Source of the DNA: Methanobacteriota archaeon
GTDB lineage: Archaea > Halobacteriota > Bog-38 > Methanoflorentales > Methanoflorentaceae
Length of the DNA: 64,000 nt
Assembly: GCA_963720465.1 (NCBI GenBank)
Contig: OY970393.1
Coordinates: 288,001-352,000 of the forward strand
Direction of reading: 5' to 3'
Shown here: positions 8,796 through 64,000 of the stretch, in pieces
Layout: each line of letters opens with the position of its first letter
Position numbering within the stretch: position 1 is the stretch's first letter
Made by a program: the position numbers and the translations under genes
The notes under the pieces: generated by a model
Database searches by the model: none
The model's input: the letters and a program-made list of their open reading frames with translations, nothing else
What the model was told of the DNA's origin: nothing

Positions 8796-8879
8796 GCACC
8801 GATGGTCTAGTGGCTATGACTTGGGCCTTCCAACGCGTGAAGAAAGCCCACAACCCGGGTTCGAATCCCGGTCGGTGCA
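8796..8879 (+). tRNA. tRNA-Gly(TCC) with 12-nt intron at 37/38 (8833-8844)
   Basis: Acceptor GCACCGA/TCGGTGC, anticodon stem TGGGC/GCCCA, CT-TCC-A|A, T-arm CCGGG-TTCGAAT-CCCGG; central splice helix CTTC/GAAG. Confidence 0.95.
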
Positions 8880-38019: not shown

Positions 38020-38139
38020 GCAGAAAGCTCTATTATCAATGCTCGGCTAGATCAATGCTCGGCTAGCAAGCTGTGCTGTGTCAGGCCGTCACTTGGCGTG
38101 CGCAAGCCCGAGTAGTGTAGCGGCCTATCGTAGAGACCC
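38020..38139 (+). repeat. Decayed copy of tRNA-Asp promoter + 5' half (oldest att-like junction) with 16-bp tandem duplication 38035-38066
   Basis: gcagaaagctctattatcaat...gcgtgcgcaagcccgagtagtgtagcggcctatc matches 41799-41892 and 59055-59148. Confidence 0.85.
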
Positions 38140-38289: not shown

Positions 38290-38490
38290 TGCAGTCCACA
38301 TTTTCGCGAGGCTAGCTAGCAAATTACAAAAAGTGGCATGCTGCCGGTCTCGATGACAAGAGGATTAACTGGATGGCAAAGCGACCGCGACGCACGAATG
38401 GCATAATCAGGAAGGCAACCACACATGCTGTGCGAGACGCCGCCTTAGATAGATACAAGCGCGAATACGCGAAACGCAAGGTGTCCGTAG
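38290..38490 (+). pseudogene. Integrase remnant (start of int(C))
   Basis: LANYKKWHAAGLDDKRINWM...GII...AVRDAAL..Y...YAKRKV matches LNHYKKWRIEGLDRKSSNWM...AVRDVALTKY...YSKRKV of 41982-42953. Confidence 0.8.
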
Positions 38491-38786
38491 TCAGCGGTGA
38501 GACTATCTTGTCCTTCTTCAGTTCAGGAACACCGACGCCGGTATCGTGAACCTTAATAGCAACAGTGTCGTCTAAGCGAGAGGCGCTGATGGTCAGCTCC
38601 CGTCATCGGGCACCGCCGTACCGAGTTCAAAATAAGGTTGGCGAAGACGCGGTGCATGACGTACGGTTCGGGTCATCTGTCGATTCGCGGTGATGATGAC
38701 GGGAACGTTATGGCGCTTTGCTACTTTTGGTGTAGGGCTCCATCCCGGCGTCAGCCGCTGAATCAGATCAAGAGTAGGCTGTTGCC

Positions 38787-39143
<357 letters not shown>

Positions 39144-39187
39144 CTAGCTCGATCTGTGCCATGCGCCAGCGCGTACCGCTTTCCGGT

Positions 39188-40408
39188 CTAGATGCGATAC
39201 GCAATTTCGTCGTGCGTTGACAAATCGAGCCCTTGCTCTTCATCGTCAGAACCTACACGCAGGCCAATTGTTAAGTCTATCGATTTGGCGATGACCAGAG
39301 TTACGACAAACGAGTACGCAAATGTGACGGCAATGCCCAACGCTTGCACCGCGAGTTGATGCGCGTTGCCGTAGAGTAAGCCGGTTCCAGCCGCGTTGAT
39401 GAACGGGCTCGCAAAAAGACCGACAGCAAGCACACCCCAGATTCCTGAGAACCCGTGAATGCCGAAGACGTCGAGAGCATCGTCGTAGCCGAGCCGTGGC
39501 TTGATGTATGAAATGGCGGTATACGAAATGAGCGCCGCGCCGAATCCGATAACCATGGTGCTCATCACATTGACGAACCCGGCCGCAGGTGTGATCGCAG
39601 CAAGTCCGGCAATGGCGCCTGACGCCGCGCCGAGCAGCGTCACCTTGCCGAAGCGAAGGTACTCGATGAGCATCCACACGAGCAAGCCGACGGCAGCTGA
39701 GGTGTTTGTCACAATAAACGCCGAAGTCGCGAGCTGTCCAGCGGCGAGAGCCGAGCCGGCGTTAAATCCAAACCAGCCTACCCAGAGGAGCCCGGCGCCG
39801 AGGATGGAATAGGCGAGCTGTTGTGGGAACAATCTCTTGTCCTGCCGTGGCTTAAGGAGGAGGACGAGGGCAAGAGCCGCGACCCCACTGTTTATATGGA
39901 CGACAATGCCTCCTGCAAAGTCGAGAACGCCGAGTTGTGCGAGCCATCCGCCTCCCCAGACCCAGTGCGCGACCGGCAGGTAAACGAGCGTGAGCCACAG
40001 CGGAATGAAAAGCATCCACGCACCGAACTTGATGCGCTCGACAAGTGCGCCGGAGATAAGAGCGACGGTAATCGCTGCAAACGCCATCTCAAATACTGCG
40101 TAGAGCCCTAGCGGGATCGTGCCGTACAACGCATGCGATTCAAGGACGCCTTGGAAGAAGGGATTGGTCGGTATTCCGATAATCCCGTGGATGTCACTCC
40201 CAAAGACCGTTCCATAGCCGCAGATAAACCAAATCACGCTCACGACTGCATAAGCTGCAAACGACAAAAATAGCGTGTTTAGCACGTTTTCTTTTTTTAC
40301 CAACCCGGAATAGAACAGGGCGAGCCCCGGGATGGTCATCAGGATGACAAGTGCCGTCGAGATGAGCATCCAGGCCGTATCACCAGAATTCAAGACTGCT
40401 ATGACCAT
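39188..40408 (-). CDS. amtB: Ammonium transporter
   Basis: [43 protein letters not shown]. Confidence 0.97.
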
Positions 40409-40455
40409 ATTATCCTCCAAGTCTCTAACGACCGAGAGCCCGTAGCTCGCGAGTC

Positions 40456-41589: not shown

Positions 41590-41868
41590 CATCTAACACT
41601 CTTGAAACTGGAAGTGAGGGAAAGCATGCATTTTTTATCGTCATTAGCGAACTATACCAAAAAGTGACAGTGTTTTAAAACAGAGAGAAGAAGTCTCAAA
41701 AAACAGATGCAGATGTAGCAGGCTTCGGCGGAGTCTTTGTTAAAAACGCGTCGGATTCCACGAAACAGTCAGAGGCAGACTCACGCTCGAAAAGCACAGC
41801 AGAAAGCTTTATTATCAATACTCGGCTAGTAAGCTGTGCTGCGTCAGGCAGTCGCTTTGCGTGCGCAA
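41590..41868 (+). pseudogene. Decayed int(N) copy
   Basis: ETGSEGKHAFFIV...DSVLKQREEV...DSRSKSTAESFIINTRL matches ORF 58740; two frameshifts. Confidence 0.8.
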
Positions 41869-41908
41869 GCCCGGGTAGTGTAGCGGCCTATCATGGAGCC
41901 CTGTCGAG
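41776..41908 (+). repeat. attL-like direct repeat: tRNA-Asp promoter + 5' half through the anticodon loop
   Basis: 41799-41908 identical to 59055-59164 (110 bp); 133 bp with 2 mismatches. Confidence 0.92.
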
Positions 41909-42953
41909 CGCTCCTTCTGTTTTTGAAGCTCTTTTTGCCTTTAAAGGAGTTTATAGATCTCTTACTCCAATTGAGTCAGATTTGATCGGTGACAAGACAA
42001 GGATAACGCGCCCAAACGATTCAGTGAACGGTCAAAGCCTCGCTTCGCTCCAATTGACATTCTCGCTAAATCAACTTAATCATTACAAAAAATGGCGTAT
42101 AGAAGGTCTTGATCGGAAAAGCAGTAACTGGATGAACAAAGCGGCTGAGATTGTTTGGAACTGTACGCAGGGCATTATCAGCGAGATAACAATGGATGCG
42201 GTGCGGGATGTTGCCTTAACCAAATATACGTGCGTTTATTCAAAACGAAAGGTATTGTATTTCGCCAAAGGTCTTCTCAAATATCTTACTAAAACAACCT
42301 TCGACACTCGTTTTCAGTCGTTTGAACTCTTCTTGGCCATGCCTAAGGTGCTCAAAACGCGGAAGCACGTGACGAGCCGCATCGTGACTACAGAAGACGT
42401 TGAAAACGTGCTTAAAGCAATTGAACGGGCGTATAACGGCGGGCGAATTGACGCCTCTCATTATCACAACTACAACGCCTTAGTGTTATTCGGCGCGTTT
42501 ACAGGGCAACGACCTTTGGCAACAATAGCACGACTAAGAGTTGGCCAGTTCGAGGAAGCTGTAAAGATGCAGAAACCGTTCGTCGATATTCTTCCGGAGC
42601 AAGACAAAATTCGGATGCAACACTACTGCCCTCTTCACCCACAAGTTGTAGAGGCGATATTGCCAGTTTTAGATAGCCGGCGAGATAGCGAGACTGTTTT
42701 TGAGCAGCTTTCGTTTCAAGAGTGGCTTAAGCACACCAACATTCGGTTGCTGCACGGCGGCGCTCGCATAGTCAACGGAGACCTAAGAAAGTTTTGTGAG
42801 CAACATAGCGATATCATTCAGTGGGATCAGTCAAACAAGAATTACATTCTCACTCACGGCGTTTCCGGAGTTGATTGGCGGTTTTACAAACATCCGCTGC
42901 CTGAGCACGTGTACGACGTATATATGCAGTATTGGGCGGCTGTGCGATTCTGA
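41907..42953 (+). CDS. Tyrosine recombinase catalytic fragment int(C)
   Basis: FTGQRP (Arg-I), DKIR (Lys), GDLRKF (Arg-II), LTHG, WRFY (Tyr); frame open back through the tRNA half-site. Confidence 0.85.
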   Translation, partial: SAPSVFEALFAFKGVYRSLTPIESDLIGDKTRITRPNDSVNGQSLASLQLTFSLNQLNHYKKWRIEGLDRKSSNWMNKAAEIVWNCTQGIISEITMDAVRDVALTKYTCVYSKRKVLYFAKGLLKYLTKTTFDTRFQSFELFLAMPKVLKTRKHVTSRIVTTEDVENVLKAIERAYNGGRIDASHYHNYNALVLFGAFTGQRPLATIARLRVGQFEEAVKMQKPFVDILPEQDKIRMQHYCPLHPQVVEAILPVLDSRRDSETVFEQLSFQEWLKHTNIRLLHGGARIVNGDLRKFCEQHSDIIQWDQSNKNYILTHGVSGVDWRFYKHPLPEHVYDVYMQYWAAVRF

Positions 42954-43511: not shown

Positions 43512-43635
43512 GACCAGCTAAATAAGAATCACATTCTCACTCATGGCGTTTCAGGAGTTGATTGGCGATTCCACAAACACCCTCTTCCCGCTTCGGTGTG
43601 ACGCCTATCTGAAATACTGGAGAGTTGTGAGACTC
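43512..43635 (+). repeat. Integrase 3'-end copy 1
   Basis: DQLNKNHILTHGVSGVDWRFHKHPLP...YLKYW. Confidence 0.88.
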
Positions 43636-43666
43636 GACGCTTTTGCCCAGTTAAAAAGGCCGCTCG

Positions 43667-43939
43667 CTATTCCTTGCCTCGCTTGAGTTTCTGATATTCT
43701 CGTTCAGTGATCCTGTCTGTCATTCCACTCCCCATAAAGACGCTCGCGCCGTGTGCAACTAATCCGATTCCCCAAAAACCGAGCACAAAGACGAACCACG
43801 GGAACCCGGCACCTGTAAACCACCATACGGCGACGAGAAAAAGGTTCACCACTACATAAATTGTGAAATGGATATAGAATCCGACCTTTTCTTCAGCCCG
43901 CTTTCGGGCCAGTCTCATCAGCTCTTCATCGCTTTGCAC
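43667..43939 (-). CDS. 2TM-domain protein
   Basis: ARKR....GFYIH..IYVVVN..L...W....PWF.....WGIGL..H. Confidence 0.88.
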   Translation of the reverse strand: MQSDEELMRLARKRAEEKVGFYIHFTIYVVVNLFLVAVWWFTGAGFPWFVFVLGFWGIGLVAHGASVFMGSGMTDRITEREYQKLKRGKE

Positions 43940-43986
43940 TATTTCACCTCCGAGATATGGTCTCAGATTGGATCATGCTTTGTTCG

Positions 43987-44409
43987 TCAACTCCACTCGT
44001 AGAACACATTGGTTCCGACCTTATCGTCGCCCCCGCCTTCCACGACGCAGATGGTGCGGTTGATCCACGCAAGCTTCTCAGACGTCGTCATGAAGGTCAC
44101 GGTGCCCGTGAGCTTCCCTCCCGCGCCAGGGGCTTTTCCTGCATAGCAGAGTTTCCAGACTACGGAATCGCCGTCAGTCGTGGTCATGACCCCTTGCGCG
44201 GTGCCCGTTGTTATGCCCGTGGGCCGTACAAGATTGCGCATAGTTCCCATATTGGTGGCCTTGACGCCTTTGGCCCTTCCAAAGCCGGTAATCTCGCCAG
44301 TTACGCTATACTCAGATTCAACGCCTTCGGATCCTACGGATTTTATGGCAAACCCTCTTGGAGTGATTTTTTCCTCAAATAGCTTCTCTCCTATGGCCAA
44401 AATCTTCAC
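43987..44409 (-). CDS. Hypothetical beta-rich protein
   Basis: Clean 140-aa ORF; F.TTSEKLAWIN...YEW pattern seen in archaeal hypotheticals. Confidence 0.65.
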   Translation of the reverse strand: MKILAIGEKLFEEKITPRGFAIKSVGSEGVESEYSVTGEITGFGRAKGVKATNMGTMRNLVRPTGITTGTAQGVMTTTDGDSVVWKLCYAGKAPGAGGKLTGTVTFMTTSEKLAWINRTICVVEGGGDDKVGTNVFYEWS

Positions 44410-44473
44410 CTGTTGCGCTGATTCTGCCTTCAGTATTTATTAGCTACCCCCAACGCGAGCGAAAAAAAGCAGA

Positions 44474-44550
44474 TTGACGCACGCGGAGCAAGCATTCTCA
44501 ACATAAGCTGCCTGAGCAGGTCTACGACGTATATATAAAATATTGGCAAA
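44474..44550 (+). repeat. Integrase 3'-end copy 2
   Basis: LTH...HKLPEQVYDVYIKYW. Confidence 0.8.
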
Positions 44551-44607
44551 ATACCCAGCTAGAAAATTAAACTGTCGCTAACAGTTTGATCAAATGAACA
44601 CTGAAGC

Positions 44608-44805
44608 GTGAGGAGTAAAGCCTGGGTTAACCTCTTTGTGAGTGCTCTTATCATCGCTACCATCATCGTTGCAGTCACCGATGCTCTTGAATTTTATGTT
44701 GTCTGGAGTGGAAAAGCAAAAATAACGCCATTGTTCGTTATCTTGGTTATCGTAGTGACGATGGTACCTATGGCAATCAACCTCTGGGTTCACATTTTCA
44801 GGTAG
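44608..44805 (+). CDS. Small two-TM membrane protein
   Basis: Two hydrophobic stretches in 65 aa. Confidence 0.45.
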   Translation: MRSKAWVNLFVSALIIATIIVAVTDALEFYVVWSGKAKITPLFVILVIVVTMVPMAINLWVHIFR

Positions 44806-44845
44806 CTTGGCAAGGCGCCATATCGCGGCTCATAAAAGGATTAGA

Positions 44846-45071
44846 GTCGAGTAGGGTACCTACCAGCATCAGCTCCCAGATTCAATGCATGATATCTACA
44901 TGAATTATTGGGTAGATGTGCGTTTAACGACCTAAGCTCATTTCTTATGCTTCCTCCGGGTCACAGCAGCGCGATCAATGAACAACGTTTTTGTTTGCCC
45001 GCCCATTTTGGTGTACATCGGAAGACCGTTTGTCAGGCACGCACGAGGAAACTCGATCTGAGTGGCGTAGA
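44846..45071 (+). repeat. Integrase 3'-end copy 3 plus stub of the 47504 methyltransferase leader and start
   Basis: YQHQLPDSMHDIYMNYWVDVRLTT*; 44915-45071 parallels 47373-47530. Confidence 0.85.
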
Positions 45072-45231
45072 GGCTCCGACTCTTAATCACGCGTGAACCC
45101 CATTCGCGCTTATAATTAATTCGGGGATCGTGGCACCGAGTCTAGCAATTATGACCATCCTTGGTTAATTGAATCTAGCAAGTGGCGGTGCTGTTCCCAA
45201 GCCAACTTATAGAATCTCAACGAACACAGTG

Positions 45232-45726
45232 ATGAGGGCTGTGGTGAACACCAGCTTTATAATAAGGCCAATGTCTCGTAATGATTTTAGCGAGCTTACG
45301 GAAGTTATAGATACGTCTTTTTTATGGTTTGTAAGGTCTTTGGCGCTTCATAGCGTGCGAGAAGGGCAACAAGTGCTTATAAGCGAAGCGCAAGGAACAG
45401 CGGTTGGATTTGTTAAACTAACCAATTTTCAAGTGGGTAGCGGTAAGTTCGGGCGCATACAATGGATTGCGGTTCACCCGCAATTTCGCAGAAAAGGAAT
45501 TGCGACTGCACTCGTGAATGCTGGATTTGAGTCTTTGACACACGCAGGGGCAAAAGCTGTTTTTGTTACGGTGAGGAGGAGAAATACTGCGTCTTTAACA
45601 GTATTTCGCAGCCAGGGCTTTAGAAAAATAGGATTTTTGGAACTCTGGCCGCTTTTCGGGTTGCGGATATTCGAGTTTTATAGAGAAATTTGGCTTGCCC
45701 CTTGGATACTTGTTTTAATGCAATGA
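45232..45726 (+). CDS. GNAT-family N-acetyltransferase
   Basis: IAVHPQFRRKGIATAL, N.ASL..F...GF. Confidence 0.88.
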   Translation: MRAVVNTSFIIRPMSRNDFSELTEVIDTSFLWFVRSLALHSVREGQQVLISEAQGTAVGFVKLTNFQVGSGKFGRIQWIAVHPQFRRKGIATALVNAGFESLTHAGAKAVFVTVRRRNTASLTVFRSQGFRKIGFLELWPLFGLRIFEFYREIWLAPWILVLMQ

Positions 45727-45787
45727 TTAGTTTGGCAGCGCACACAACAAAAAGTTAGGCTAAATACGCTAAAGATCCTTGCAATAC

Positions 45788-45930
45788 CGTGATACGATCG
45801 GGTGTGATCAATCAAATCGATCGTATGCTTGACTCACGGAGTTCGCGGTGTCGACGGGAAGCAGCACAAGCATCCGCTGCCGGAACACGTGTACGACGTG
45901 TATATGCGATATTGGGCGGATGTGCGATTC
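45788..45930 (+). repeat. Integrase 3'-end copy 4
   Basis: DTIGCDQSNRSY/LTHGVRGVDGKQHKHPLPEHVYDVYMRYWADVRF. Confidence 0.9.
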
Positions 45931-45995
45931 ACACCGTGGAAAGACCTGTAGTGACTGCTGACAGGTGAAAAGATAACATAACAACGGGAGGTTAA

Positions 45996-46451
45996 TCACA
46001 GGCTTTTTTCTTTCAATCCACGCGCAAATACTCGTGCGTGCTCTAAATCTTCCTCGTTTGGCCTTCCTTTGTTAATCCCTCCGACGAGTCTCAAAGGCCC
46101 GACCGTATCCCATCCCTTGCACGAGAATTCACCAACAATAGCGAATCCTCGGCTCTCGAGTAGTTCCTTAAAAGCAGCGTAGTGTTTTGTCCCCCCTCTG
46201 CCACTCGTGGAGAACACAAAGGCCTGTTTTTCTGTGACAACGGGAAGTGCCTCGGCAAACTGCGTGATGGTCTTGTGGAACTTCATGCCGTAGATGCCGG
46301 AACCAAACCCGACGAGATCATAAGTCGTCACATTGTCAGCTTGTGCCTGATTGACAGGAACAAGATCTGCCGCCAACTCTTCTGCCATCACCTTCGCTAT
46401 TTTTTCCGTGTTCTGGTGGTGGATAGAAGCATAAACAATCAATGACTTCAT
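45996..46451 (-). CDS. Flavodoxin-family protein
   Basis: IVYASIHHQNTEKIA, GFGSGIY, FSTSG, NKGRPNEEDL. Confidence 0.92.
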   Translation of the reverse strand: MKSLIVYASIHHQNTEKIAKVMAEELAADLVPVNQAQADNVTTYDLVGFGSGIYGMKFHKTITQFAEALPVVTEKQAFVFSTSGRGGTKHYAAFKELLESRGFAIVGEFSCKGWDTVGPLRLVGGINKGRPNEEDLEHARVFARGLKEKSL

Positions 46452-46694
46452 GACGGAAGTCTGATAGCGCTAATCTTATATTAGCAATAAAGGCCAGCTA
46501 GCGACCAGTTGTGACGATTTACAGCGTCTCACATTATAGGGAGAGCGCAGACTTGTTCTATACGTTTTATGAGCACGTTATGCACGCTCTTTCTTCTGTG
46601 AAGTCGAAAGGTGACTTATTAGTAAAGGAGCGCAGCAATATTTATATTAGTTAAACCTATTAAGCTGTATTAGATTGAAATAAGGTGATATAAG

Positions 46695-46988
46695 GTGGAT
46701 AACCAGAACAATGAACAGACGAGCTGTATAGACGTGCACTATGAGCGTGACAATAAGAGGCTGGCTGGAGCGGTGTGTGTGGCGCTCAGCAAGAATGTAG
46801 GGAGAAAAGATCGCAAGGTTGACCTCATCTTCATGCCGGAGGAGGAACATGCTTTTTCGGTGAGGAGCACTACTGAACTGATAAACATTCTCGATCATTG
46901 GAAGGTGTCGTTCGAAGAGCGAAAGCGGGTTTTTGACTTCGTTGCTGAGCGGTTGCGCATGCTTGCTGGTGAGGACACAGTAGCGTAG
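46695..46988 (+). CDS. Hypothetical protein (97 aa)
   Basis: RBS AGGTGA before GTG, AT-rich promoter-like region upstream. Confidence 0.5.
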   Translation: MDNQNNEQTSCIDVHYERDNKRLAGAVCVALSKNVGRKDRKVDLIFMPEEEHAFSVRSTTELINILDHWKVSFEERKRVFDFVAERLRMLAGEDTVA

Positions 46989-47005
46989 TAAAGGGAAGGA
47001 AGTTT

Positions 47006-47393
47006 GTGGAGTTTAGGGAACATCCAAAATCCGCAAGCTCTCAACTAAAAAGATAGGATCTACCACAAATCAGACTACCTCCGCGGCTTGCTAACACCGT
47101 CGACCAAAAAATCGATATCTTCGAAACCGAGCACACTGGCACTATAGCTCTTTTTGGAAGTGGGTCAAACGAAGGAAGATCCCGATGTCACAGTTTCCCG
47201 GCATTTCGTGCTTGGTGACCTGCGGAGGTTGTGCGAAGAACAAGGCGATACGATAGGGTGGGTCAATCAAATCGCGGTATATTATGACGCACGGCGTCAG
47301 CGGTATCGACTGGAAGCACTATAGCATCCGCTGCCGGCTAACGTGTACGACGTCTATATGCAGTACTGGGCGGATGTGCGTTTAACGATCTAA
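47006..47393 (+). pseudogene. Internally deleted integrase: int(N) start fused to 3'-end copy 5
   Basis: GTSKIRKLST...PQIRLPPRLANTVDQKIDIFETEH then GDLRRLCEEQGDTIGW...THGVSGIDWKHY...VYDVYMQYWADVRLTI*. Confidence 0.85.
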
Positions 47394-49906: not shown

Positions 49907-50308
49907 TTAAGCGTTCCGATTTAGCGCCGAGTCTGAGCGTGAAACCAACGTGAATAAGACCGAACGGCCGATGTTGCGTCTTCCCACGTGCCCACTAAAA
50001 TAGTGGAGGTGCGCTCGCGACCCTGCTAAAATCGATGTGACAAACACAGTGAGGGTCAGGGCAAGCTGTTCTTTCAACTCAAGCGCGAACGTTCGCAAAT
50101 ACGACCCTTCAAGCCGTTTGGCTCTGCCGAGGCAATAGCTGCAGGCCGCTCCGTAAATGACCATATACCGTAGTTTAGCATCTAGCTGGGCCCGTTCAAC
50201 GCTTTTTATAAGATCTTCCAGCGGTATTGTGTGCAGGTAGGCGGCAAAGAGGTTATAGATTGCCTCTCTGGTCTCGGCTTTAACTTTCGGGGTGTATATG
50301 CTTTGCAC
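49907..50308 (-). pseudogene. 3'-truncated paralog of the 149-aa unknown protein
   Basis: YNLFAAY...IYGAACSYCLGRA.RL.GSYLRTFALELKEQLA; diverges after TSIL. Confidence 0.8.
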
Positions 50309-54002: not shown

Positions 54003-54156
54003 TTAGCGTATTCCTTTCGCTCTCTTCTTAGCTCCTTGTTCGTCATTTTTTTGTCGATTTCCTTTGATTTCTAAAGCCCGTTCAGAAGCATGGTGGCAAA
54101 AGCACGCAGTTACGCCTTAACAAGCCCTTGGATGCGCGCAGCAGTTCTTCATAACT
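54003..54156 (-). repeat. ~150-bp dispersed repeat containing AACGG-N10-TCAAAGGAAATCGA
   Basis: Matches 58354-58481 and 52389-52533. Confidence 0.85.
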
Positions 54157-54194: not shown

Positions 54195-54644
54195 TCACTT
54201 GGAAGTTCGTTCTTGGTGGTACCCACCTTTGTAGATTTCCAGCACCGAAATCGCAAGCTTCTCGGCGTCGTGCGTGCACATCACCTGCTGCAACACTTCA
54301 ATGATCTGGCGAAGCGGTGGCTCAGCACCCTCTTTATCATCTACGCGCCCACTCGGGTGAGTCAGAATCGATGTGACAAACGTAGCAAGGGTGTGTGCAA
54401 GCTGTTCTTTTAACTCAAGCGCGAACGTTCGCAAATACGACCCGTCAAGCCGTTCGGCCCTGCCGAGGCAGTAGCTGCAGGCCGCTCCGTATATGACTAC
54501 ATACCTGAGCTGCGCGTCTCGCCGGGCCCGTTCGACGCTGCCAATCAGCTCTTCCAGCGGCACGGTGCGAATGTAGGCAGCGAAAAGGTTGTAAAGAGCC
54601 TGCTTCGTCTCATTTGTGTCTTTCTTAACATTAACTCCTTGCAC
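54195..54644 (-). CDS. Unknown 149-aa helical protein with CSYC motif (only intact copy of five)
   Basis: Amino-acid conservation with 49907-50308 and three remnants. Confidence 0.75.
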   Translation of the reverse strand: MQGVNVKKDTNETKQALYNLFAAYIRTVPLEELIGSVERARRDAQLRYVVIYGAACSYCLGRAERLDGSYLRTFALELKEQLAHTLATFVTSILTHPSGRVDDKEGAEPPLRQIIEVLQQVMCTHDAEKLAISVLEIYKGGYHQERTSK

Positions 54645-56705: not shown

Positions 56706-56850
56706 AAGATGTGGCGGAGAGGTGGCTCAGCAGCACTTTCCGCGTTTAGGCGCACGCGGCGGTGCCAGAATCGATGTGACAAACGTAGCGAGGGTTTGGG
56801 CCAGCTGTTCTTTTAACTCAAGCGCAAACGTTCGCAGGCATGACCCTTGC
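56706..56850 (-). repeat. Internal remnant of the 149-aa gene
   Basis: LRTFALELKEQLAQTLATFVTSIL; abuts the ClC stop codon. Confidence 0.82.
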
Positions 56851-58236
56851 CTATCGCGGTCGCTGCCGCACTCTAAAATGTTTGGCAATGAAACCCTTGA
56901 TTCTATTAATGACCTTCAGGCCGGCTTTCGTGACACTCCCCGCTCTGGGCTGCACCGTCGGCTCACACTCCGCAACCTCCTTACCGATCTGAACCTGAAT
57001 AGACCGGGATTTCTCCGTCGCAAGCACCTGCGATGGATAGATGCTTCGGTGACCAGACATCACGTAGCTGACAACGCACGCTACTGCCGCGTACGGCGCG
57101 ACTGCTGGCCCAAAGAGCTCAATTGATATGATACTCGCGGCGATGGGAGTGTTGGTGGCTCCCGCAAGAACGGCTACGAGGCCAATTGCCGCAAACGTCG
57201 CCGAATTCAAGCCAAATACCTGCGCGAAGAGAGCACCGGCCGTTGAACCGATAAAGAAGATCGGGGTGATGATACCGCCGCTTCCCCCAAAGCCCAACGT
57301 TATGCTCGTGAACACGATCTTTAACGGGAAGGCGTACCAGACGGCGTGCTGCCCCTGCAGCGTAGCCTGAGTCGTGGCTAACCCGAGCCCAAGGTACTGC
57401 GTCGAGAATATCAGGGTCAACAGTATGAGTGCCGCCCCGCCGATGATGCCCTTGGCAGGCGCCCATATGGGCAGACGTTCTGCCGCCTTTTTGAAGAGAT
57501 TGAAGAGCTCTATGAGGAGGAGCGCGACGATCCCAAAGAAGATGCCTGCAACAATCACTTGCGCCAAGAAGAACCCGCTGAAGACGGGCACGAACTGGAG
57601 GGGACTGTAGAAATAGGTAATGCCAAGGGCAGCCGACACCTGATAGCTGACGATCCCCGCGATAAACGCGGGGAGAAGCACGTCGTACATTAGGCCTCCT
57701 ACAAAGAGGACTTCGACCCCGAAGATGGCACCGCCCAGAGGCGTACCAAAGACGGAGGCAAATCCGGCGCTGACCCCACAGATGACCAATTTCCGACGGT
57801 CACGGTCGTCGAACTTCAGGAGATCGCCAAATAGTGAAGAGAGCCCCGCCCCTATCTGGGCGCCCGGCTCTTCTTTGCCTGCCGAGCCCCCTGACGCGAT
57901 AGTGATGAGCGTGGCAGCGAGCTTTACCAAAACCGTTGACGGCTTTATTTTCCCGGATCGTTTATGAAGGGCATCAATAATCATCGCCGTGCCGTGCCCT
58001 TCATCGCCTGGGGTAAGATATTTCGTCATCGCGCTGCTGACAAGGAGCGCTAGGGGAAGGAGGAGAAAGTAATAGGGGAACTGGCCGGTGAGGGCAATGC
58101 TGTAGTTCAAGACCTTAAGGAAAACGGCTACCGCTAAGCCGACGGCGACTCCAGCGAGTGTGCCTAGCACGCACCACTTGCAAACGCTGATGAATAAGAC
58201 GATTTGCCTAGGGAGGATATTAGACGCATTCGACAC
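56851..58236 (-). CDS. ClC-family chloride/anion channel protein
   Basis: GGSAGKE.P..QIG, GVSAGFASVFGTPLGG..F..E, GGSGG..TP.F.IG, TNTPIAA. Confidence 0.92.
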   Translation of the reverse strand: MSNASNILPRQIVLFISVCKWCVLGTLAGVAVGLAVAVFLKVLNYSIALTGQFPYYFLLLPLALLVSSAMTKYLTPGDEGHGTAMIIDALHKRSGKIKPSTVLVKLAATLITIASGGSAGKEEPGAQIGAGLSSLFGDLLKFDDRDRRKLVICGVSAGFASVFGTPLGGAIFGVEVLFVGGLMYDVLLPAFIAGIVSYQVSAALGITYFYSPLQFVPVFSGFFLAQVIVAGIFFGIVALLLIELFNLFKKAAERLPIWAPAKGIIGGAALILLTLIFSTQYLGLGLATTQATLQGQHAVWYAFPLKIVFTSITLGFGGSGGIITPIFFIGSTAGALFAQVFGLNSATFAAIGLVAVLAGATNTPIAASIISIELFGPAVAPYAAVACVVSYVMSGHRSIYPSQVLATEKSRSIQVQIGKEVAECEPTVQPRAGSVTKAGLKVINRIKGFIAKHFRVRQRPR

Positions 58237-58353: not shown

Positions 58354-58481
58354 TTAGCGTATTCCTTTCGACTTCACCATAACTTCTATATATCATCTCT
58401 TTTTTCGATTTCCTTTGATTTCAAAGGCCCGTTCAGAATCGTGGTGGCAAAAGCACGTTGTTGCGCCTTAAAGAGCCCTTG
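58354..58481 (-). repeat. Dispersed repeat containing AACGG-N10-TCAAAGGAAATCGA
   Basis: Matches 54003-54130. Confidence 0.85.
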
Positions 58482-58739
58482 CAGCGCAACTGCCGCGAAT
58501 CATGACGGTTATGCTTGAACGGCGCTTCTAGAGACACATGCAAGCGATCTGCACGCACAAGATAAGCATCCAAAGCTCAAAACCCCCTATGCTCTCTCGA
58601 TAGCTAGTTGCCGCTGGGCGTGGTTGAATGTCAACGTTTCGAATCTCTCTTGCGCGACACACACAGCTGTTAAGCAAACTCTTATTCTAGTAACCCGATA
58701 ATAATACCCGGTTATCGTTGGTTCGTACTTGGTGTCGTT

Positions 58740-59219
58740 ATGCAGCACATCGGAAAGTCAAAAATCGGCAAGTTATCTGCCAAAGGGAATGACTACCCAC
58801 AACTTCGCTTGCCTCTACAATACGCAAATACTGTAGGCGAGGTAGCTGATGTCTTTGAGACTGAACACGAGGGAAAACAAGCATTTCTCATCGTGACAGA
58901 ACATAGTGTGCCAAAGGAAGACACGGTTTTAAAACCGAGAGAAGAAGTTTTAAAACCATGTGCAGATTTGGCACAGCCTTTAACGGAAATCCTTCCTAGA
59001 AGTGCACATGCTTCCGCGGAACCGTTCGCGACAGACTCGCGCTCGAAAAGCACCGCAGAAAGCTTTATTATCAATACTCGGCTAGTAAGCTGTGCTGCGT
59101 CAGGCAGTCGCTTTGCGTGCGCAAGCCCGGGTAGTGTAGCGGCCTATCATGGAGCCCTGTCGAGGCTCCGACTCGGGTTCAAATCCCGACTCGGGCGCTC
59201 CTTTTTTGCTTTCTTTTGA
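58740..59219 (+). CDS. Integrase N-terminal fragment int(N) (AbrB-like YPxLRLP domain), reads through tRNA-Asp
   Basis: In frame with int(C) across the att repeat; homologous N-terminus fused to an int tail at 47006-47393. Confidence 0.75.
   Translation: MQHIGKSKIGKLSAKGNDYPQLRLPLQYANTVGEVADVFETEHEGKQAFLIVTEHSVPKEDTVLKPREEVLKPCADLAQPLTEILPRSAHASAEPFATDSRSKSTAESFIINTRLVSCAASGSRFACASPGSVAAYHGALSRLRLGFKSRLGRSFFAFF
59055..59075 (+). promoter_or_regulatory. BRE/TATA-like tRNA-Asp promoter embedded in int(N)
   Basis: GAAAGC-TTTATTAT ~55 nt before the tRNA; present in all three att-like copies (TCTATTAT at 38.0 kb). Confidence 0.6.
59125..59197 (+). tRNA. tRNA-Asp(GTC)
   Basis: GCCCGGG/CTCGGGC acceptor, GAGCC-CTGTCGA-GGCTC, TCGGG-TTCAAAT-CCCGA, T-run downstream. 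Confidence 0.97.
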
Positions 59220-59464
59220 ACAATTGGAGTCTCACACAGCTCTTGATTATATGATTCAGTACTTTCGAACGATCTTTCCAATTTAGCTAATTTAGCTAAA
59301 TGCGGCTCCACAAAAAATCCCCGAATCCCATCAATCTCAATTTCATAGATATTCACGATTTGACCTGCGAGTTCTTTGAAGTCTCGTGGCAAGCGAATGA
59401 TGGGATAAGAAAATGTCGGATTACGCGATTGGAGTGAGATTTTTGTGGTGAATATTTTTTTCAT
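59147..59464 (-). CDS. Second int(N)-like fragment reading antisense into the tRNA 3' half
   Basis: YPIIRLPRDFKELAGQIVNIYE homologous to YPQLRLPLQYANTVGEVADVFE; ends RPSRDLNPSRSLDRAP. Confidence 0.7.
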   Translation of the reverse strand: MKKIFTTKISLQSRNPTFSYPIIRLPRDFKELAGQIVNIYEIEIDGIRGFFVEPHLAKLAKLERSFESTESYNQELCETPIVQKKAKKERPSRDLNPSRSLDRAP

Positions 59465-59679
59465 TAGTATTAAGACTAACAAATTTTTGGATAATAAACT
59501 TGTTATTTGAAGCATCTTGCGATGATCATTCACCACAACGGCCTAACTCGGTGGTGTCAAGCGGAAGTTGTGAAGCAAGTTAGCTATGTAGTGTAGTCGC
59601 TAAATGAGCATCAAAAAGCAGAGAGAGAAACTTTTGAAATAGCATATAGTGTTTATATTTTACAAAGACGTTGCGTACG

Positions 59680-60696
59680 ATGGCCGAAAACAAACAACAA
59701 CATTTTGTGGCCAAATCATATCTGAAAAGTTTTTGTCTGCAAAATACGGAATCACTCTATCGCTTCGATCTAGTAGCTAGCAAATCGAAAAAGCGAAATA
59801 TCGAGAAGATTTTTCGAGAACCTTATTTCTATGCCGATGGCTCGGTGGCCCCGATATTCGAGCTTGCATTATCTGCATTAGAGGATAAGCACGGTCAAAC
59901 CATTCAACAAATTTTGAAGACGCAAACACTCACAATCACCTCGCTTAAGGATTTCATGTACCTGCATCTTTTAGTTCTCATTACAAAAACGCGAACAAAA
60001 GCATCAAGAGAAGAGATAGAGGATATGGCTCGTTCTTCCTTAATTAGAAAACTTCCCTATCTAGCTGAGTCTGAAATGGCTAGAGAAGCTCTTAATAAGT
60101 TCATCGAGCAAAAATCGCCGCATTTAGATGTCTTGAAATTCGTGTCTAAGCATTCATATGCGGTCACTGATTTGGCGCCCACGCTATTAATCAATAAGAC
60201 AGATCCCTTTACGCCCTTCATTACGTCTGATTCTCCGGTGATCTTTCACAACCTAATCGACGGAGATTTGACGGGTCTTATTTGCAAGGGCTTAATCATA
60301 GTTCTGCCGCTTAATGAAAAAGTTGCTCTCTGTCTATTTGACATTTATAGATATAAACCAAAGAACGTAATAAACAACAACATTGTAGTATCAGATAACA
60401 AAGATGTTAATACGCTGAATCGACTGCATATAATAAACGCAGCAGGATTTCTCATTTTTTCAAAGCAGCAGTATCACGACTATGTTTTGTCGCTTCAAAC
60501 AGACCTGTTATGGAACCCGCTTAACAAACCTAATTCCTTGAAATTGTCATTTTTTGAAATATACAATGAGGATTCTTTTCGCGGAGATAGACTCTTTGAG
60601 CCGAGAAATGGAGAGATAGCTGCTTCTTTGAACGAGGCGATTAAAGAGATACGCAAAGAAGTTACGTCATTGCCGAGTGATCGCGCGAGAACCTAA
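59680..60696 (+). CDS. DUF4238-family protein
   Basis: KQQHFV..SYL..F, FY, FITSDSPV, LPL. Confidence 0.85.
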   Translation: MAENKQQHFVAKSYLKSFCLQNTESLYRFDLVASKSKKRNIEKIFREPYFYADGSVAPIFELALSALEDKHGQTIQQILKTQTLTITSLKDFMYLHLLVLITKTRTKASREEIEDMARSSLIRKLPYLAESEMAREALNKFIEQKSPHLDVLKFVSKHSYAVTDLAPTLLINKTDPFTPFITSDSPVIFHNLIDGDLTGLICKGLIIVLPLNEKVALCLFDIYRYKPKNVINNNIVVSDNKDVNTLNRLHIINAAGFLIFSKQQYHDYVLSLQTDLLWNPLNKPNSLKLSFFEIYNEDSFRGDRLFEPRNGEIAASLNEAIKEIRKEVTSLPSDRART

Positions 60697-60699
60697 ATA

Positions 60700-61455
60700 C
60701 TACGGCAAAGCCTTAATTGCCTCTATCTTGAGTTTGTTTAAGTCTTTGTTGTGCCCTAATTCGTATTTCTTATCTGCCTCTTTCGAAATTTCGTACAGGG
60801 CATCTATGGCAACATTCACAGCCGCCACCGCATTAAAGTCGCCTTCTATTACTCCTGATGGCGACCAATGAGCGATCTGCGAGAACTCGTTATAGATTAC
60901 ATCATATTGGTCGCGAATCTGTCGCCGTAGCTTCGTGTCACTTATCCTGTTGATTAAATCGGAAAGCGACATCTTGCTAAAGGTCAAACTCTCTCTAGGG
61001 AGATAATTGAAGCCGAAATCTTTTTCCGCTCGGTCTACCATGTCTGCACCAAACTTGTGCTCAACCTTTTCATACAGCCATTTGTGTTTTGCGGCCAGCG
61101 AAACCGTGTTCGCTACTTTCTTTCCGTCTTCGTAAACCATAAACAAGCGCCATTTGTCGGCGATATCGTGATAGTCTCTGTAATACTCAAAGTTGATGAC
61201 CCCTTCGAGAATAGTTCTAGCTACAAGAATAGCTTCATGGTAGAACCCGTTTTCCGCCAGCAATTGAATGCTCTGGCTATATAAAATCGTGCGATGTAAG
61301 AAATGATAAACAAAGAAATTATTGTTTCTCTCTTTCTCGTTCGTCTCAACAGAGCATTTTGTTCGAAACTCTTTCTCAACAGCTTGCGCAAGAATGATAA
61401 AATCTTTAAGATGAGCTCTAAGAGCTGGCAAGTACATTGATTCATGTCTTGGCAT
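60700..61455 (-). CDS. DUF5677-like (HEPN-like helical) protein
   Basis: A.LVARTILE...N..Y and Y...Y..FSQIAH motifs. Confidence 0.7.
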   Translation of the reverse strand: MPRHESMYLPALRAHLKDFIILAQAVEKEFRTKCSVETNEKERNNNFFVYHFLHRTILYSQSIQLLAENGFYHEAILVARTILEGVINFEYYRDYHDIADKWRLFMVYEDGKKVANTVSLAAKHKWLYEKVEHKFGADMVDRAEKDFGFNYLPRESLTFSKMSLSDLINRISDTKLRRQIRDQYDVIYNEFSQIAHWSPSGVIEGDFNAVAAVNVAIDALYEISKEADKKYELGHNKDLNKLKIEAIKALP

Positions 61456-61602
61456 AATTTTGGAAGGAGAGAGCTTGTGTTATACTAACACGCTCAACTG
61501 ATTCGATAACGTTTGCGATTATGTTTTTGCTATCGATGACTCATAGGTTGCGATCCCGCTAATTTGGTTTATCGTGCCTCCCACCAATATCGTTCGCCTG
61601 TA

Positions 61603-62049
61603 TTAGACATCTTTATTGTCTAGTGCAGCGTAACGTGCTGCTCGCGCGCTAGCTAGCTTAAAATCTTCCGCTTGGAGTTCTTTCTTTTGTGCTTCTGTAA
61701 CAAACCATTGATGAGGCCACGTCATTCTGCTGTGAGCGTCTTTCGTTTCAATACGGATACCTCTCGACATAACCTCCCCATCCAGATCTGTTAAGAAAAC
61801 GAAGTATACGCCGTCTTTTGTTCTCCAAAATAATTCACATACTTCCTCTTTTGCATCTTCAAGCTTGCTCCTACCAGAATTCCACTGAGCGGAAGGGCTT
61901 AACGCTTTACTGATTAACCGTGTCTGGCGGTCTTCAAAATCAATTTCAATTCCATCAACACTAATCTTGTGGGGCTTAATTTTCGCTTTTTCTTTGTCTG
62001 CCTCTTCTTGCAATCGTTCCCGCTCTTTGCGTTCTTCGTCACTTATCAC
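61603..62049 (-). CDS. Hypothetical protein (148 aa)
   Basis: Clean ORF, GGAGG RBS before GTG. Confidence 0.55.
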   Translation of the reverse strand: MISDEERKERERLQEEADKEKAKIKPHKISVDGIEIDFEDRQTRLISKALSPSAQWNSGRSKLEDAKEEVCELFWRTKDGVYFVFLTDLDGEVMSRGIRIETKDAHSRMTWPHQWFVTEAQKKELQAEDFKLASARAARYAALDNKDV

Positions 62050-62335
62050 GTTTTTTTAGCCTCCGCGCATTAATGCACAAGAACGCGGCTTAAGCCTATG
62101 GGAACCGTTTGCGAGGCAGTTTTGAGGTCATAACTCCTTATGCGAGGGTTTGCTCTTTAAACAGAGCCGTTCACTGCATTTAAATCGAAAAAAAGAATAT
62201 GAGCGAGGAACTGTCGAACGGAGGCACTGGCGAGGCACCCTCTTCTCAGATGATACTTCGAGAGCTCGGTTCATAAACGAAGCTACACTACTTCTGTTTT
62301 GCTAACAGAAAACGATTTGTGCTCTTGACCAAAAA

Positions 62336-62779
62336 ATGCCCTTCTTGTGGGGTAATTCAACATTATCGAAAAAAGAATGGTATAAGAAGGCCCGTTGCTC
62401 GAAAAGCTCAGGCGGCGGCAGCGGCAACGCAGGGATAGCGGTCAAAGTCAACTCGCAACAAACAGCAAGCCAGATAGGGACCTACAGCACGCCAGCAGCA
62501 GGTAACGAGTTTATTATCTTCAACGTGACAGTCACCAACCTCAACCAAGACAATGAGCTACTCGGCAACCCGAACTTCTTTAAGCTCACCACAGCCGACG
62601 GCGCAGTATATCAATACAGTTCCTCGACATTCTCAGCCCCCAACGCCCTCCAAGGCGTGCAGAACACGAATGCAGGCGACAAAGTGTCAGGAGTCGTAGC
62701 GTTCGAGGTCCCGCAGGGTGCGATTGCCAAAACCCTAACATACAACGACGACATAAACGTAGTCGTGACTAATTTGTAA
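62336..62779 (+). CDS. DUF4352-family Ig-like surface protein, N-terminus probably lost
   Basis: P.AGNEF...NVTVTN, F.L...DG..Y, G.VAFEVP; no signal peptide in the ORF as it stands. Confidence 0.75.
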   Translation: MPFLWGNSTLSKKEWYKKARCSKSSGGGSGNAGIAVKVNSQQTASQIGTYSTPAAGNEFIIFNVTVTNLNQDNELLGNPNFFKLTTADGAVYQYSSSTFSAPNALQGVQNTNAGDKVSGVVAFEVPQGAIAKTLTYNDDINVVVTNL

Positions 62780-62901
62780 CGTTCCCTTTTCCTTTTTTTC
62801 TTTTAGCTACGCTATACCTTGGGATACGCAATTCCTAAGCTATGTGCCGACCGTCAGTGCGAGGCTTACATGCCGTCCTTCCTTGGTTTTGGCAGGTCTT
62901 G

Positions 62902-62935
62902 AACGGAGCCCGTCAGTCGAAGGAAATCGAAAAAA
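62902..62935 (+). repeat. AACGG-N10-TCGAAGGAAATCGAAAAAA motif
   Basis: Same as 63697-63730 and the reverse of 58400-58433. Confidence 0.75.
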
Positions 62936-62946
62936 GCGCTTCGTTG

Positions 62947-63543
62947 CTACAAACGACGACCTTTCTGCAGGTCAAATCTTGGTTGACTTTGATTCGCAGT
63001 TTGCGCTCTGAGCAACTTCTTTTTCTGCTCAGCGAATTCTTCATCCGTCAAGATGCCTTCGCTCTTCAGTTCTGCTAACTTCTTTAATTCATCTGCTACG
63101 TTGATTCCCGTCACTGTGGGTTGCTGTGCAGGCACAGGTGTATAAGAAGAGCTAGATGCTGCGTCCTGATGTTGATGCACTATTCCGATGATTTTATCAG
63201 CATTTTCTTTGAAGAGGCCGTCGATTACGAAGGAGCCATGAGTGCCCGTGCTTATATGAAGGGCTACGGTCGCAGTGAGTGTGTTCAGAAATCCCCTATT
63301 CTTTTTAATGCTGTTAATCTGCGCGTAGGGAAGCTCAGTTACATCTTTTAGCAATCCAAACAAGATTGGACGGTGTAGTATCAGTGCCCTCTTTGTGGCA
63401 TCAATCGAACTCAGTCCAAGTGAAATCAGTCCATACCACCACCATTGAGATACGGTGAGCAATACATCGCACTCTTTACAGGTTCCTATTTGCTCATCTA
63501 ATGGTGTGCCACAATTTCTACAGCGACGTGTTAGAAACGCCAT
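62947..63543 (-). CDS. Zinc-ribbon + bacterial PH-like + SHOCT protein
   Basis: CRNC/CKEC; PY.QI.SI; ADELKKLAELKSEGILTDEEFAEQKKKLL. Confidence 0.85.
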   Translation of the reverse strand: MAFLTRRCRNCGTPLDEQIGTCKECDVLLTVSQWWWYGLISLGLSSIDATKRALILHRPILFGLLKDVTELPYAQINSIKKNRGFLNTLTATVALHISTGTHGSFVIDGLFKENADKIIGIVHQHQDAASSSSYTPVPAQQPTVTGINVADELKKLAELKSEGILTDEEFAEQKKKLLRAQTANQSQPRFDLQKGRRL

Positions 63544-63696: not shown

Positions 63697-63730
63697 AACG
63701 GAACTCAAAAATCAAAGGAAATCGAAAAAA
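63697..63730 (+). repeat. AACGG-N10-TCAAAGGAAATCGAAAAAA motif
   Basis: Same as 62902-62935. Confidence 0.75.
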
Positions 63731-64000
63731 GAAGCAACTTTTTAGGGGCTGAGGTGGTGGCAAAGGGATACCCTAAGCAACGATAAAGGCAAAGCTCAAT
63801 CGTAAAAAGTGACAGGAAGTGCCCGTCTGTTATGGTGCTGAGTCTCAAATATCTCTGCGACGTTCCCAATTTCGTCTGCGTGGGTCTTTGGCAGCCTAAT
63901 AAGTGGCTAAACGACGCCCGCTTTGGCATTCAACTTGGTGACCTTTGATTTTCCAATGTGTTGCATAGAGCCCTCACCCCGCTTGACGAGACGTGCCCCC

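Follow-up and report, generated by a model that had tools for sequence, protein, structure and literature searches.

Probable leftover halves of self-splitting integrases lie over both strands of the tRNA-Asp gene of an mcrA-bearing archaeon

Results

Two open reading frames converge on the only tRNA-Asp gene

We analysed a stretch of 64,000 nucleotides (nt), hereafter the window, from the genome of a Methanobacteriota archaeon of the Methanoflorentaceae, and in particular the tRNA-Asp gene that it carries and the integrase remnants around that gene. The genome (G000) is a single contig of 2,313,764 bp that encodes McrA; the window covers its positions 288001-352000, and window coordinates are continued here past base 64000. 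The tRNA-Asp(GTC) gene (59125-59198, plus strand; ARAGORN) is the sole tRNA-Asp gene among the 37 tRNAs called in the 2.31-Mb genome, and its anticodon arm reads GGAGCC-CTGTCGA-GGCTCC. Two convergent open reading frames (ORFs) overlap it, sharing 73 nt on opposite strands. The ORF at 58740-59219, on the plus strand, codes for 159 amino acids (aa): residues 1-55 form a small N-terminal domain (N-domain), followed by a linker and then by the translation of the tRNA upstream region and of tRNA bases 1-40 (..SPGSVAAYHGALS); the frame runs in sense through the whole tRNA and then stops. On the minus strand a frame is open over 59147-59536, and the ATG at 59464 gives a product of 105 aa (59147-59464). 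This product consists of the N-domain, a linker and an antisense reading of 14 bases downstream of the tRNA and of the tRNA 3' part (KKAKKERPSRDLNPSRSLD), its C-terminal end being RDLNPSRSLDRAP, also given as ..RPSRDLNPSRSLDRAP. Over their first approximately 52 residues the two ORFs are identical at 15 of 52 positions (29%, BLASTP expectation value (E) = 5e-7), with the common pattern K..YP.(I/L)RLP..G..E/Q..G..F. The convergent pair, the common domain and the symmetric arm (GGAGCC-N7-GGCTCC) had been pointed out in an earlier note on this DNA and are confirmed here. We conclude that both ORFs are the leftover N-terminal halves, int(N), of self-splitting integrase genes with an SSV-like architecture; the C-terminal halves are called int(C) below.

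The left-hand and right-hand repeats overlap around the anticodon loop

Repeats of the tRNA region were collected with a short-word BLAST search of 59025-59298 against the genome. The inner left attachment site (att), at 59032-59164 on the plus strand and attributed to element B (see below), comprises 93 nt of upstream sequence and tRNA bases 1-40. These 133 nt recur, also on the plus strand, at 41776-41908 with 98.5% identity (E 1e-66), identity stopping at base 40, and a decayed third copy gives a match at 38051-38129 (91% over 79 nt; tRNA bases 1-33 at 88%). The inner right att, at 59157-59212 on the plus strand, comprises tRNA bases 33-74 and 14 nt downstream. It recurs perfectly (100% over 56 nt, E 2e-25) at genome positions 387178-387233, that is, window coordinates 99178-99233, and as partial matches at genome positions 365863-365900 (window coordinates 77863-77900), where a decayed copy has a few substitutions and an in-frame deletion of 18 nt between two CGACTCGGG repeats of the tRNA.

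When all 5' copies of at least 98% identity were considered, 7/8 end at base 39-40 and the eighth, the window's own, reaches base 45. The 3' copies of that identity (n = 14) start at base 28-29 (seven), 33 (six) or 35 (one). Thus, the anticodon loop and part of its stem are the sole segment common to both kinds of copy, and both types of integration may exchange strands in the 7-nt loop within the symmetric stem. This possibility is drawn solely from the repeat boundaries, which overlap at tRNA bases 29/33-40. Alternatively, the insertions on the two sides could be real and the arm no shared core at all, each subfamily recognising its own part of the tRNA (the upstream region and D-arm on the left, the T-arm and 3' flank on the right), with an incidental overlap around the loop. 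The repeat boundaries being the only observation at hand, this alternative gains from the length of the left att (about 110-133 nt), which reaches far upstream, and from the two places at which the 3' copies begin (28-29 and 33). We nevertheless regard it as unlikely, because the ends of the nearly identical copies (39-40 in 7/8 of the 5' copies, 28-29 or 33 in 13/14 of the 3' copies) have the anticodon loop in common and because the SSV1 integrase cleaves at the borders of that loop (PMC8371274).

The left-hand att also contains a putative promoter, an AAAGC TTTATTAT sequence at 59059-59071 resembling a transcription factor B recognition element (BRE) followed by a TATA box, the TTTATTAT box itself lying at 59064-59071 within the element-borne sequence. 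Inner and outer copies in four same-genus genomes have in common the 75 nt that precede the tRNA, including an AAAGC-TTTA(T/A)TAT box, and a AAAGCTTTAAT box is present at the unoccupied site of G018, a genome of another genus, as well. It thus seems that the promoter of the tRNA itself is contained in the 5'-type att, if the box, assigned from its sequence, is indeed one.

The left array contains two elements

In the left array, the outermost and oldest copy of the tRNA-Asp upstream region with bases 1-33 (38020-38138, plus strand) is decayed and has an internal duplication; it was aligned with the copies found beside hypE in related genomes and lies just downstream of a chromosomal hypE-like gene (36941-37975). 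An int(C) remnant follows it (38316-38492, plus strand; positions 61-123 of the family profile, E 3e-12; 51% identity by tblastn). Upstream of the att at 41776 lies a decayed int(N) (41592-41906, plus strand; also delimited as 41592-41868) that is 56% identical in tblastn to residues 36-141 of the 58740 ORF and has one in-frame stop. These two remnants define element A, an older, small and decayed element of 3.7 kb (38.1-41.9 kb) with PII and ammonium transporter (Amt) genes. The latter, identified by eye from their translations, occupy 38787-40420, between the two remnants, and may be cargo.

The att copy at 41869-41908 is read as ..SPGSVAAYHGALS in the frame of the int(N) and continues without a stop into the listed ORF 41982-42953, giving an open frame of 424 aa with core-binding and catalytic domains (int(C), 41909-42953, plus strand). 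The junction ..ASPGSVAAYHGALSS.P..FE.LF.. is also found in metagenomic homologues such as P0002 and P0003. This uninterrupted in-frame reading makes 58740-59164 and 41909-42953 the two halves of one gene and places element B at about 41.9-59.16 kb.

The right array extends beyond the window

The earlier note had suggested looking past base 64000 for a further copy of the tRNA 3' half with a minus-strand int(C) in frame with the 59464 ORF. Two more copies of the 3' part are present there, and each is followed by a minus-strand int(C) homologue. After the att copy at 77863-77900 comes a near-complete int(C) (77823->76852) with one internal stop, which reads the att as KRPSRSLNRAYLG (RPSR..SLNRAYLG) in the frame of the 59464 ORF. 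This reading agrees with that of the int(N) (..RPSRDLNPSRSLDRA) and with that of the unsplit 449-aa protein P0037 (..KKERPSRDLNPSRSLDRAYLG.., ..SLDRAYLG). The left-hand and 77.9-kb int(C) are 59% identical. The perfect copy at 99.2 kb is followed by a decayed int(C) (99201->98214) with one stop and frameshifts; its residues after the att, SLDSLWK, resemble SLDSLRK of the fused protein P0189, and the frame shifts afterwards. Among the family members compared, the N-domain at 59464 is nearest to that of P0189 (61%), so that its partner cannot be chosen between the two right-hand int(C), and the division of the right-hand 40 kb into elements is uncertain.

The N-domain is fused to the catalytic part through peptides encoded by tRNA

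Searching 1.84 billion representative proteins with the N-domain (E <= 0.001) gave 68 matches, 67 of them only 55-172 aa long; the sole longer one, P0167, looks like an unrelated repeat protein. In this genome the domain occurs at 31 loci, most of which do not adjoin a called tRNA, and no intact unsplit gene was found among the N-domain loci examined. The short matches and the many loci away from called tRNAs would suit the explanation that the two convergent ORFs are independent genes for small DNA-binding proteins, unrelated to integration. We find this hardly credible, since many of the short copies finish with the translation of some other tRNA, the distal repeats have in-frame int(C) partners and, in three proteins from other samples (P0037, P0076 and P0189), the N-domain is joined to the catalytic part through a tRNA-coded peptide. 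These fusions link the N-domain to integrases. The att peptide of the 59464 ORF precedes the catalytic part in P0189 (61% identical), P0037 and P0082, and a search with the int(N) among longer proteins returned P0189 as its single match. Furthermore, one long ORF of G018 holds together a stretch resembling the end of the N-domain (judged by eye), an att peptide and the catalytic part.

In the structural model of the N-domain, residues 1-50 (predicted local distance difference test (pLDDT) score 83-96) form a strand, a loop with YPxIRLP, a short helix, a hairpin and a helix. An AbrB/SpoVT-like fold was considered and is not supported, as no Pfam match was obtained and VapB chains appeared only at E >1.5 in Foldseek. 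Possibly, the domain binds arm sites or serves in multimerisation.

The C-terminal halves have the predicted fold of tyrosine recombinases

An AlphaFold2 model of P0037 was built with 65 sequences. The mean pLDDT per 10 residues is at least 85, and mostly above 90, over residues 141-390 except for one low block (241-250), and it falls below 50 over residues 102-132, a region that includes the att peptide (approximately residues 108-127, placed by motif position). With Foldseek, all 30 PDB matches listed at E <= 0.01 are tyrosine recombinases aligned over both domains (260-353 columns). They include lambda Int (3e-5), Tn1549 Int, XerA, Brujita Int, XerD, Cre and an integron integrase, and the best is 5j0n; the template modelling (TM) scores of 0.22-0.41 are low, as expected for two mobile domains. 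R296, K328 and H333 are invariant and R388, H411, Y421 and Y433 near-invariant, in that order, these residues having been placed without superposition. K328 lies between two modelled strands, and the motif round R388 is GDLR, without the His. The family also matches a PHROG integrase family weakly (E 3.8e-4), and some of its int(C) homologues, of which there are at least 633 among metagenome-derived proteins, are labelled integrase by JGI. By its modelled fold, then, the family belongs to the tyrosine-recombinase superfamily. It appears to work like an SSV-type integrase, yet is not a member of that group by sequence.

Relatives of the int(C) occur in 22/23 other genomes of the host's taxonomic family, many with at least seven matches listed, and in 42/301 sampled genomes of the phylum. 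In this genome, tblastn detected 64 pieces, 20 of them at 38-99 kb. The P0037 protein had no tblastn match in 72,556 plasmid and 50,697 phage records, and no relative was confirmed when the family alignment was compared with IMG/VR viral contigs.

Three attachment layouts sort into separate branches of the family

The 120 best homologues were typed by their tRNA-Asp peptides. Thirteen read the tRNA 5' half in sense, two the 3' half in antisense and 16 the 3' half in sense (..PCRGSDSGSNPDSGAP..), and 89 are untyped; in 13/120 the SPGSVAAYHGALS peptide is joined directly to the catalytic part. Of the 16 proteins reading the 3' half in sense, 14 begin at an ATG inside the tRNA, so the int(C) of this layout could start translation within the tRNA gene. 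A short plus-strand ORF at 59149-59286 in the window likewise has its ATG inside the tRNA (MEPCRGSDSGSNPDSGAPFLLSF..), its start being identical to that of the 14 homologues.

We then compared layout with phylogeny in a quick maximum-likelihood tree (short search, root unknown). Its 126 rows are the 120 homologues (the window copy relabelled), the right-hand copy with an X at the stop, P0189 and four copies from relatives typed by position; 88 rows are untyped. The 14 rows with the 5' half in sense fall on one side of a branch with support 92, the 20 rows with the 3' half in sense form one clade (support 99), and the four rows with the 3' half in antisense lie between the other two groups or on a long branch. 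Only two changes of layout are needed on the tree, against a mean of 14.9 with shuffled labels, and 0/200 shuffles were as low. Thus, each of the three layouts sorts into its own branch of the family tree. In the layouts with the 5' half in sense and the 3' half in antisense, the tRNA-identical stretch lies N-terminal of the anticodon loop; the two are therefore mirror images, and int(N) adjoins the working tRNA. The layout with the 3' half in sense leaves int(C), not int(N), beside the working tRNA. Together, the layouts use 3/6 frames of the tRNA-Asp gene as coding sequence. The proposal in the earlier note that one family uses opposite halves of the tRNA accordingly stands as far as the 5' and 3' types go, and a phylogeny set against att orientation, also suggested there, bears it out; since the third layout exists, the picture is no simple mirror pair. 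Likewise, both strands of the tRNA can be called protein-coding in unsplit integrase genes, a statement that we do not carry over to the leftover ORFs.

A complete tRNA-Asp is found in nine further genomes of the genus, in addition to separate partial copies. Integrase pieces flank it on both sides within 1.5 kb in 6/10 of the same-genus genomes with a complete locus: three (G000, G006 and G002) combine the 5' half in sense with the 3' half in antisense, and three (G010, G009 and G007) combine the 5' half in sense with the 3' half in sense. In G008, remnants on both sides were seen once the flanks were widened. The order hypE, outer 5' copy, int(C) and complete tRNA was found in G011, G008 and G010, and immediately before the tRNA an int(N) could be detected in G011 and G010 but not in G008. 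About 2 kb separates the tRNA of G008 from TrmB-like genes downstream; here such genes are reached just beyond 99.3 kb. In G018, hypE is directly followed by tRNA-Asp, that is, the left site is unoccupied, and an antisense-type int(N) lies on the right.

It also seemed possible that there is a single true type of integration and that the mirror side arose by inversions or rearrangements ending in the tRNA. Inverted att copies do occur, for example an opposite-strand copy of the 3' half 7.7 kb downstream of the tRNA in G010, and a two-sided remnant at genome positions 1277699-1278313 lies far from the tRNA-Val(cac) gene. However, the 5' type has its own int(C) branch and its own att with the upstream region, its peptide SPGSVAAYHGALS is joined to the catalytic part in 13/120 homologues from other samples, and the same 5' layout recurs beside hypE in four genomes, which makes a single type very improbable. 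The inverted copy in G010 (L036, G010:C5, 18009-19012) has an int(C) beside it and suggests an inversion between elements.

Other loci of the family and further features of the window

The family has other loci linked to tRNAs in this genome (G000:C1:721463-722559, 61928-62372, 2276581-2277124 and 1558669-1560201). An int(N) lies 9 nt upstream of tRNA-Leu(caa) and an int(C) piece about 380 nt downstream of it; an antisense int(N) lies downstream of tRNA-Val(gac) and another downstream of tRNA-His; and tRNA-Val(tac) is directly followed by a sense-type int(C), the open frame of which begins within the tRNA. At a second two-sided site, G000:C1:1277699-1278313, convergent int(N)-like ORFs ending in ..GGRRFESGRAH (sense) and ..GPAGFESATSAV (antisense) lie over a fragment resembling the 3' part of tRNA-Val(CAC), the tRNA-Val(cac) gene itself being at 191891-191964.

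Within element B, five plus-strand integrase remnants that retain only the last approximately 20-45 codons (43512, 44490, 44858, 45826 and 47193-47387) and an N-domain fragment (47057-47155, plus strand) were located with the profile map and tblastn. Counting both arrays, at least 14 such 3'-end remnants (profile positions approximately 311-353) lie at 43512-47387 and at window coordinates 79283-97118. Nearly all are oriented as the local int(C), and some share downstream sequence across both arrays, for example before LCM-type methyltransferase genes. A repeated protein family (..RTFALELKEQLA..TFVTSIL..) without a Pfam match is encoded at 49907-50308, 54195-54644 and 56727-56888 and has DNA relatives at many places in the genome. 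The guanine-plus-cytosine (GC) content, 0.52-0.57 at 53-58 kb, goes down to about 0.41-0.42 at 59-62 kb. The tRNA-proximal end of the right-hand element holds low-GC (about 41%) cargo at 59671-63543, encoding DUF4238, DUF5677, DUF4352 and SHOCT/bPH proteins. It is followed by an N-domain pseudogene with one stop (63817-63966, minus strand), which is 92% identical in DNA to the int(N) adjoining tRNA-His elsewhere in the genome. Further right, at L001 2751-7028 (window coordinates 66751-71028), the inserted region carries a gene for TATA-binding protein (TBP) and a formate-dehydrogenase-like pair that consists of a molybdopterin oxidoreductase and an FrhB/FdhB-like subunit. Two 'tRNA-???' with four-base anticodons, called by ARAGORN at 1807-1904 and 8796-8879, may be intron-containing tRNAs.

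The earlier note had also described an AACGG-N10-TCRAAGGAAATCGA motif pointing away from the tRNA on both sides. The motif is real: TCRAAGGAAATCGA, with AACGG ten bases upstream, is found at 54054-54067 and 58405-58418 on the minus strand and at 62917-62930 and 63712-63725 on the plus strand, and all four copies point away from the tRNA. Four copies compare with 0.10 expected in the window, 0/100 shuffles reached four, and the genome holds six exact copies in all. The motif lies within a block of 25-130 nt common to its copies, downstream of several unrelated repeated genes. In two cases, at 58405 and in G006, it precedes an N-domain start by about 120 nt, in divergent orientation; the remaining copies have no link to such a start. 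Inspection by eye detected no consistent hairpin or TATA box at the motif, the reverse complement of which is T-rich, and we could not tie it to integrases or to integration.

Contigs from RNA libraries of three studies, 90-99% alike to the window, were placed over 58636-58998 (X15 and X16), 58784-58964 (X17) and 58926-59212 (X15), and the bin 59303-59900 has depth among the RNA libraries in X16 only (0.62). As these contigs belong to relatives and DNA carry-over is possible, we do not take them to show transcription of the ORFs. In a DNA run (X2), a contig jump from 59148 to 41700 was considered as the junction of an excised circle and rejected: both of its ends fall inside, or at the margin of, the 133-nt repeat and the aligned stretch, and it is therefore read as repeat placement. 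The 'opposite strand' joints in the same run (54227/59159 and 58576/59199) are probably due to similar loci at other places in the genome.

Discussion

The tRNA-Asp gene very probably stands between two arrays of integrated, now immobile elements, all of which used one divergent family of tyrosine recombinases of SSV-like build. The arrays together span about 61 kb, from the hypE-like gene (which ends at 37975) to the TrmB-like gene past window coordinate 99.3 kb, and on this view the earlier reading of the locus was essentially right. The attachment site would lie inside the int ORF, in the linker between the small N-domain and the core-binding and catalytic part, so that integration would cut the gene into int(N) and int(C). 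In the left array, the element's site (attP), which is read in sense, would copy the upstream region of the tRNA together with bases 1-40, and each insertion would push the old 5' part leftwards and leave int(N) on the left, abutting the rebuilt tRNA. In the right array, attP would be a copy of bases 29/33-74 and 14 nt downstream read in antisense; the old 3' part would move rightwards and int(N) would again abut the tRNA. A linker that tolerates any stop-free att reading may have allowed the family to change tRNA half, strand and frame, and the working tRNA gene would by now be element-derived on both sides of the anticodon loop.

Several results weigh against this interpretation. Neither the int(C) nor the int(N) matches a Pfam family, even at E <= 10; genome scans with PF00589 gave 10 matches, none at these loci, and with PF16795 none at all. 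A profile of 65 family members found no recombinase among PDB sequences, and its comparison with the SSV1 integrase in hhalign indicated no similarity (probability 0.2%). Because sequence similarity to Pfam, PDB and SSV1 is lacking, the term integrase rests on the predicted fold, the conserved residues, the weak PHROG match and the context. The N-domain model had 0 PDB matches in Foldseek at E <= 0.001. All copies at the locus are split or broken, that is, fossils: the 77.9-kb att has its 18-nt deletion and its int(C) a stop, and a stop and frameshifts interrupt the 99-kb int(C). The one DNA run, X2, revealed no excised circle. The left-type att has CGCTCC as its right core arm, compared with GGCTCC in the tRNA. 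On the right, it is the 99-kb copy, not the closer one at 77.9 kb, that the catalytic part of P0189 resembles, which leaves the pairing of halves ambiguous. Finally, some genes of the inserts (Amt/PII, a CLC channel, TBP and the formate-dehydrogenase-like pair) have the look of host housekeeping genes, and the elements may therefore be mosaics.

If the interpretation holds, the only tRNA-Asp gene, promoter included, may have been rebuilt from element DNA to the left and to the right of the anticodon loop. In that case an essential gene of the host would rely on sequence brought by elements, and loss of an element would be safe only by precise excision. A tRNA gene can thus be a two-sided docking site, here with about 61 kb of foreign DNA gathered around it, and the family provides a natural series in which to study changes of target orientation by a tyrosine recombinase. 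For annotation, a short ORF overlapping a tRNA gene, whichever its strand, can be half of an integrase and escape every Pfam model.

Self-splitting integrases have been described mainly from hyperthermophilic archaea and as one sequence family. A 2021 review assigns PF16795 to the suicidal integrases and traces them to one event (PMC8371274). The family described here is a sequence-distinct recombinase family with self-splitting integration at tRNA genes, which uses both halves and both strands of the same tRNA. We offer only tentatively the further idea that it is a second self-splitting lineage, evolved independently of and unrelated to that of PF16795, in which an att placed in a disordered linker let the family switch tRNA halves, strands and frames. 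In a limited search of the open-access literature on suicidal and SSV-type integrases we found no description of the family or of a two-sided tRNA site, which is not proof that they are unpublished.

The SSV-type integrases, represented by SSV1 and pT26-2, are the closest known systems in architecture. Their att corresponds to a portion of a tRNA gene, in most cases the 3' part, and integrated elements are trapped (PMC8371274; PMC7253208); the pT26-2 group has five members from mesophilic Methanosarcinales (PMC7253208). As in those systems, the att lies inside the int ORF after a short N-terminal part (the SSV1 record annotates the site within int), direct repeats identical to part of the tRNA flank the element, and splitting of the gene places int(N) and int(C) at the two element ends, with in-frame halves at both arrays here and unsplit genes in P0037, P0076 and P0189. 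Unlike them, the present family has no detectable sequence kinship with the group, as given by the PF16795 and hhalign results above; its listed structural matches are classical recombinases, with no SSV1 integrase entry among them; its host here bears mcrA; and it shows three att layouts within one family. The domain order, a small N-domain followed by core-binding and catalytic domains, is that of lambda-type integrases, in keeping with the best structural match; the family differs from these in the N-domain, which has no significant PDB match, and in carrying attP inside the gene.

The pTN3-like integrases of the Thermococcales are described as unique among archaea in using the tRNA 5' half, the tRNA being expressed from the integrase promoter after integration (PMC8371274). 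The left-hand elements are similar in that the att is the tRNA 5' half and the rebuilt tRNA takes its upstream region from the element. In contrast to the pTN3-like case, the att here carries the tRNA's own upstream block with the BRE/TATA-like box, and close relatives within the family use the 3' half. The anticodon loop is a recognised sublocation for tyrosine recombinases that target tRNA genes (Williams 2002, as cited in PMC8371274). The 7-nt loop in its palindromic stem fits the scheme of an overlap plus core, and the repeat boundaries found here agree with it. Such elements normally restore the 3' part of the tRNA only; here, the arrays grow on both sides of the gene, and do so recurrently within the genus.

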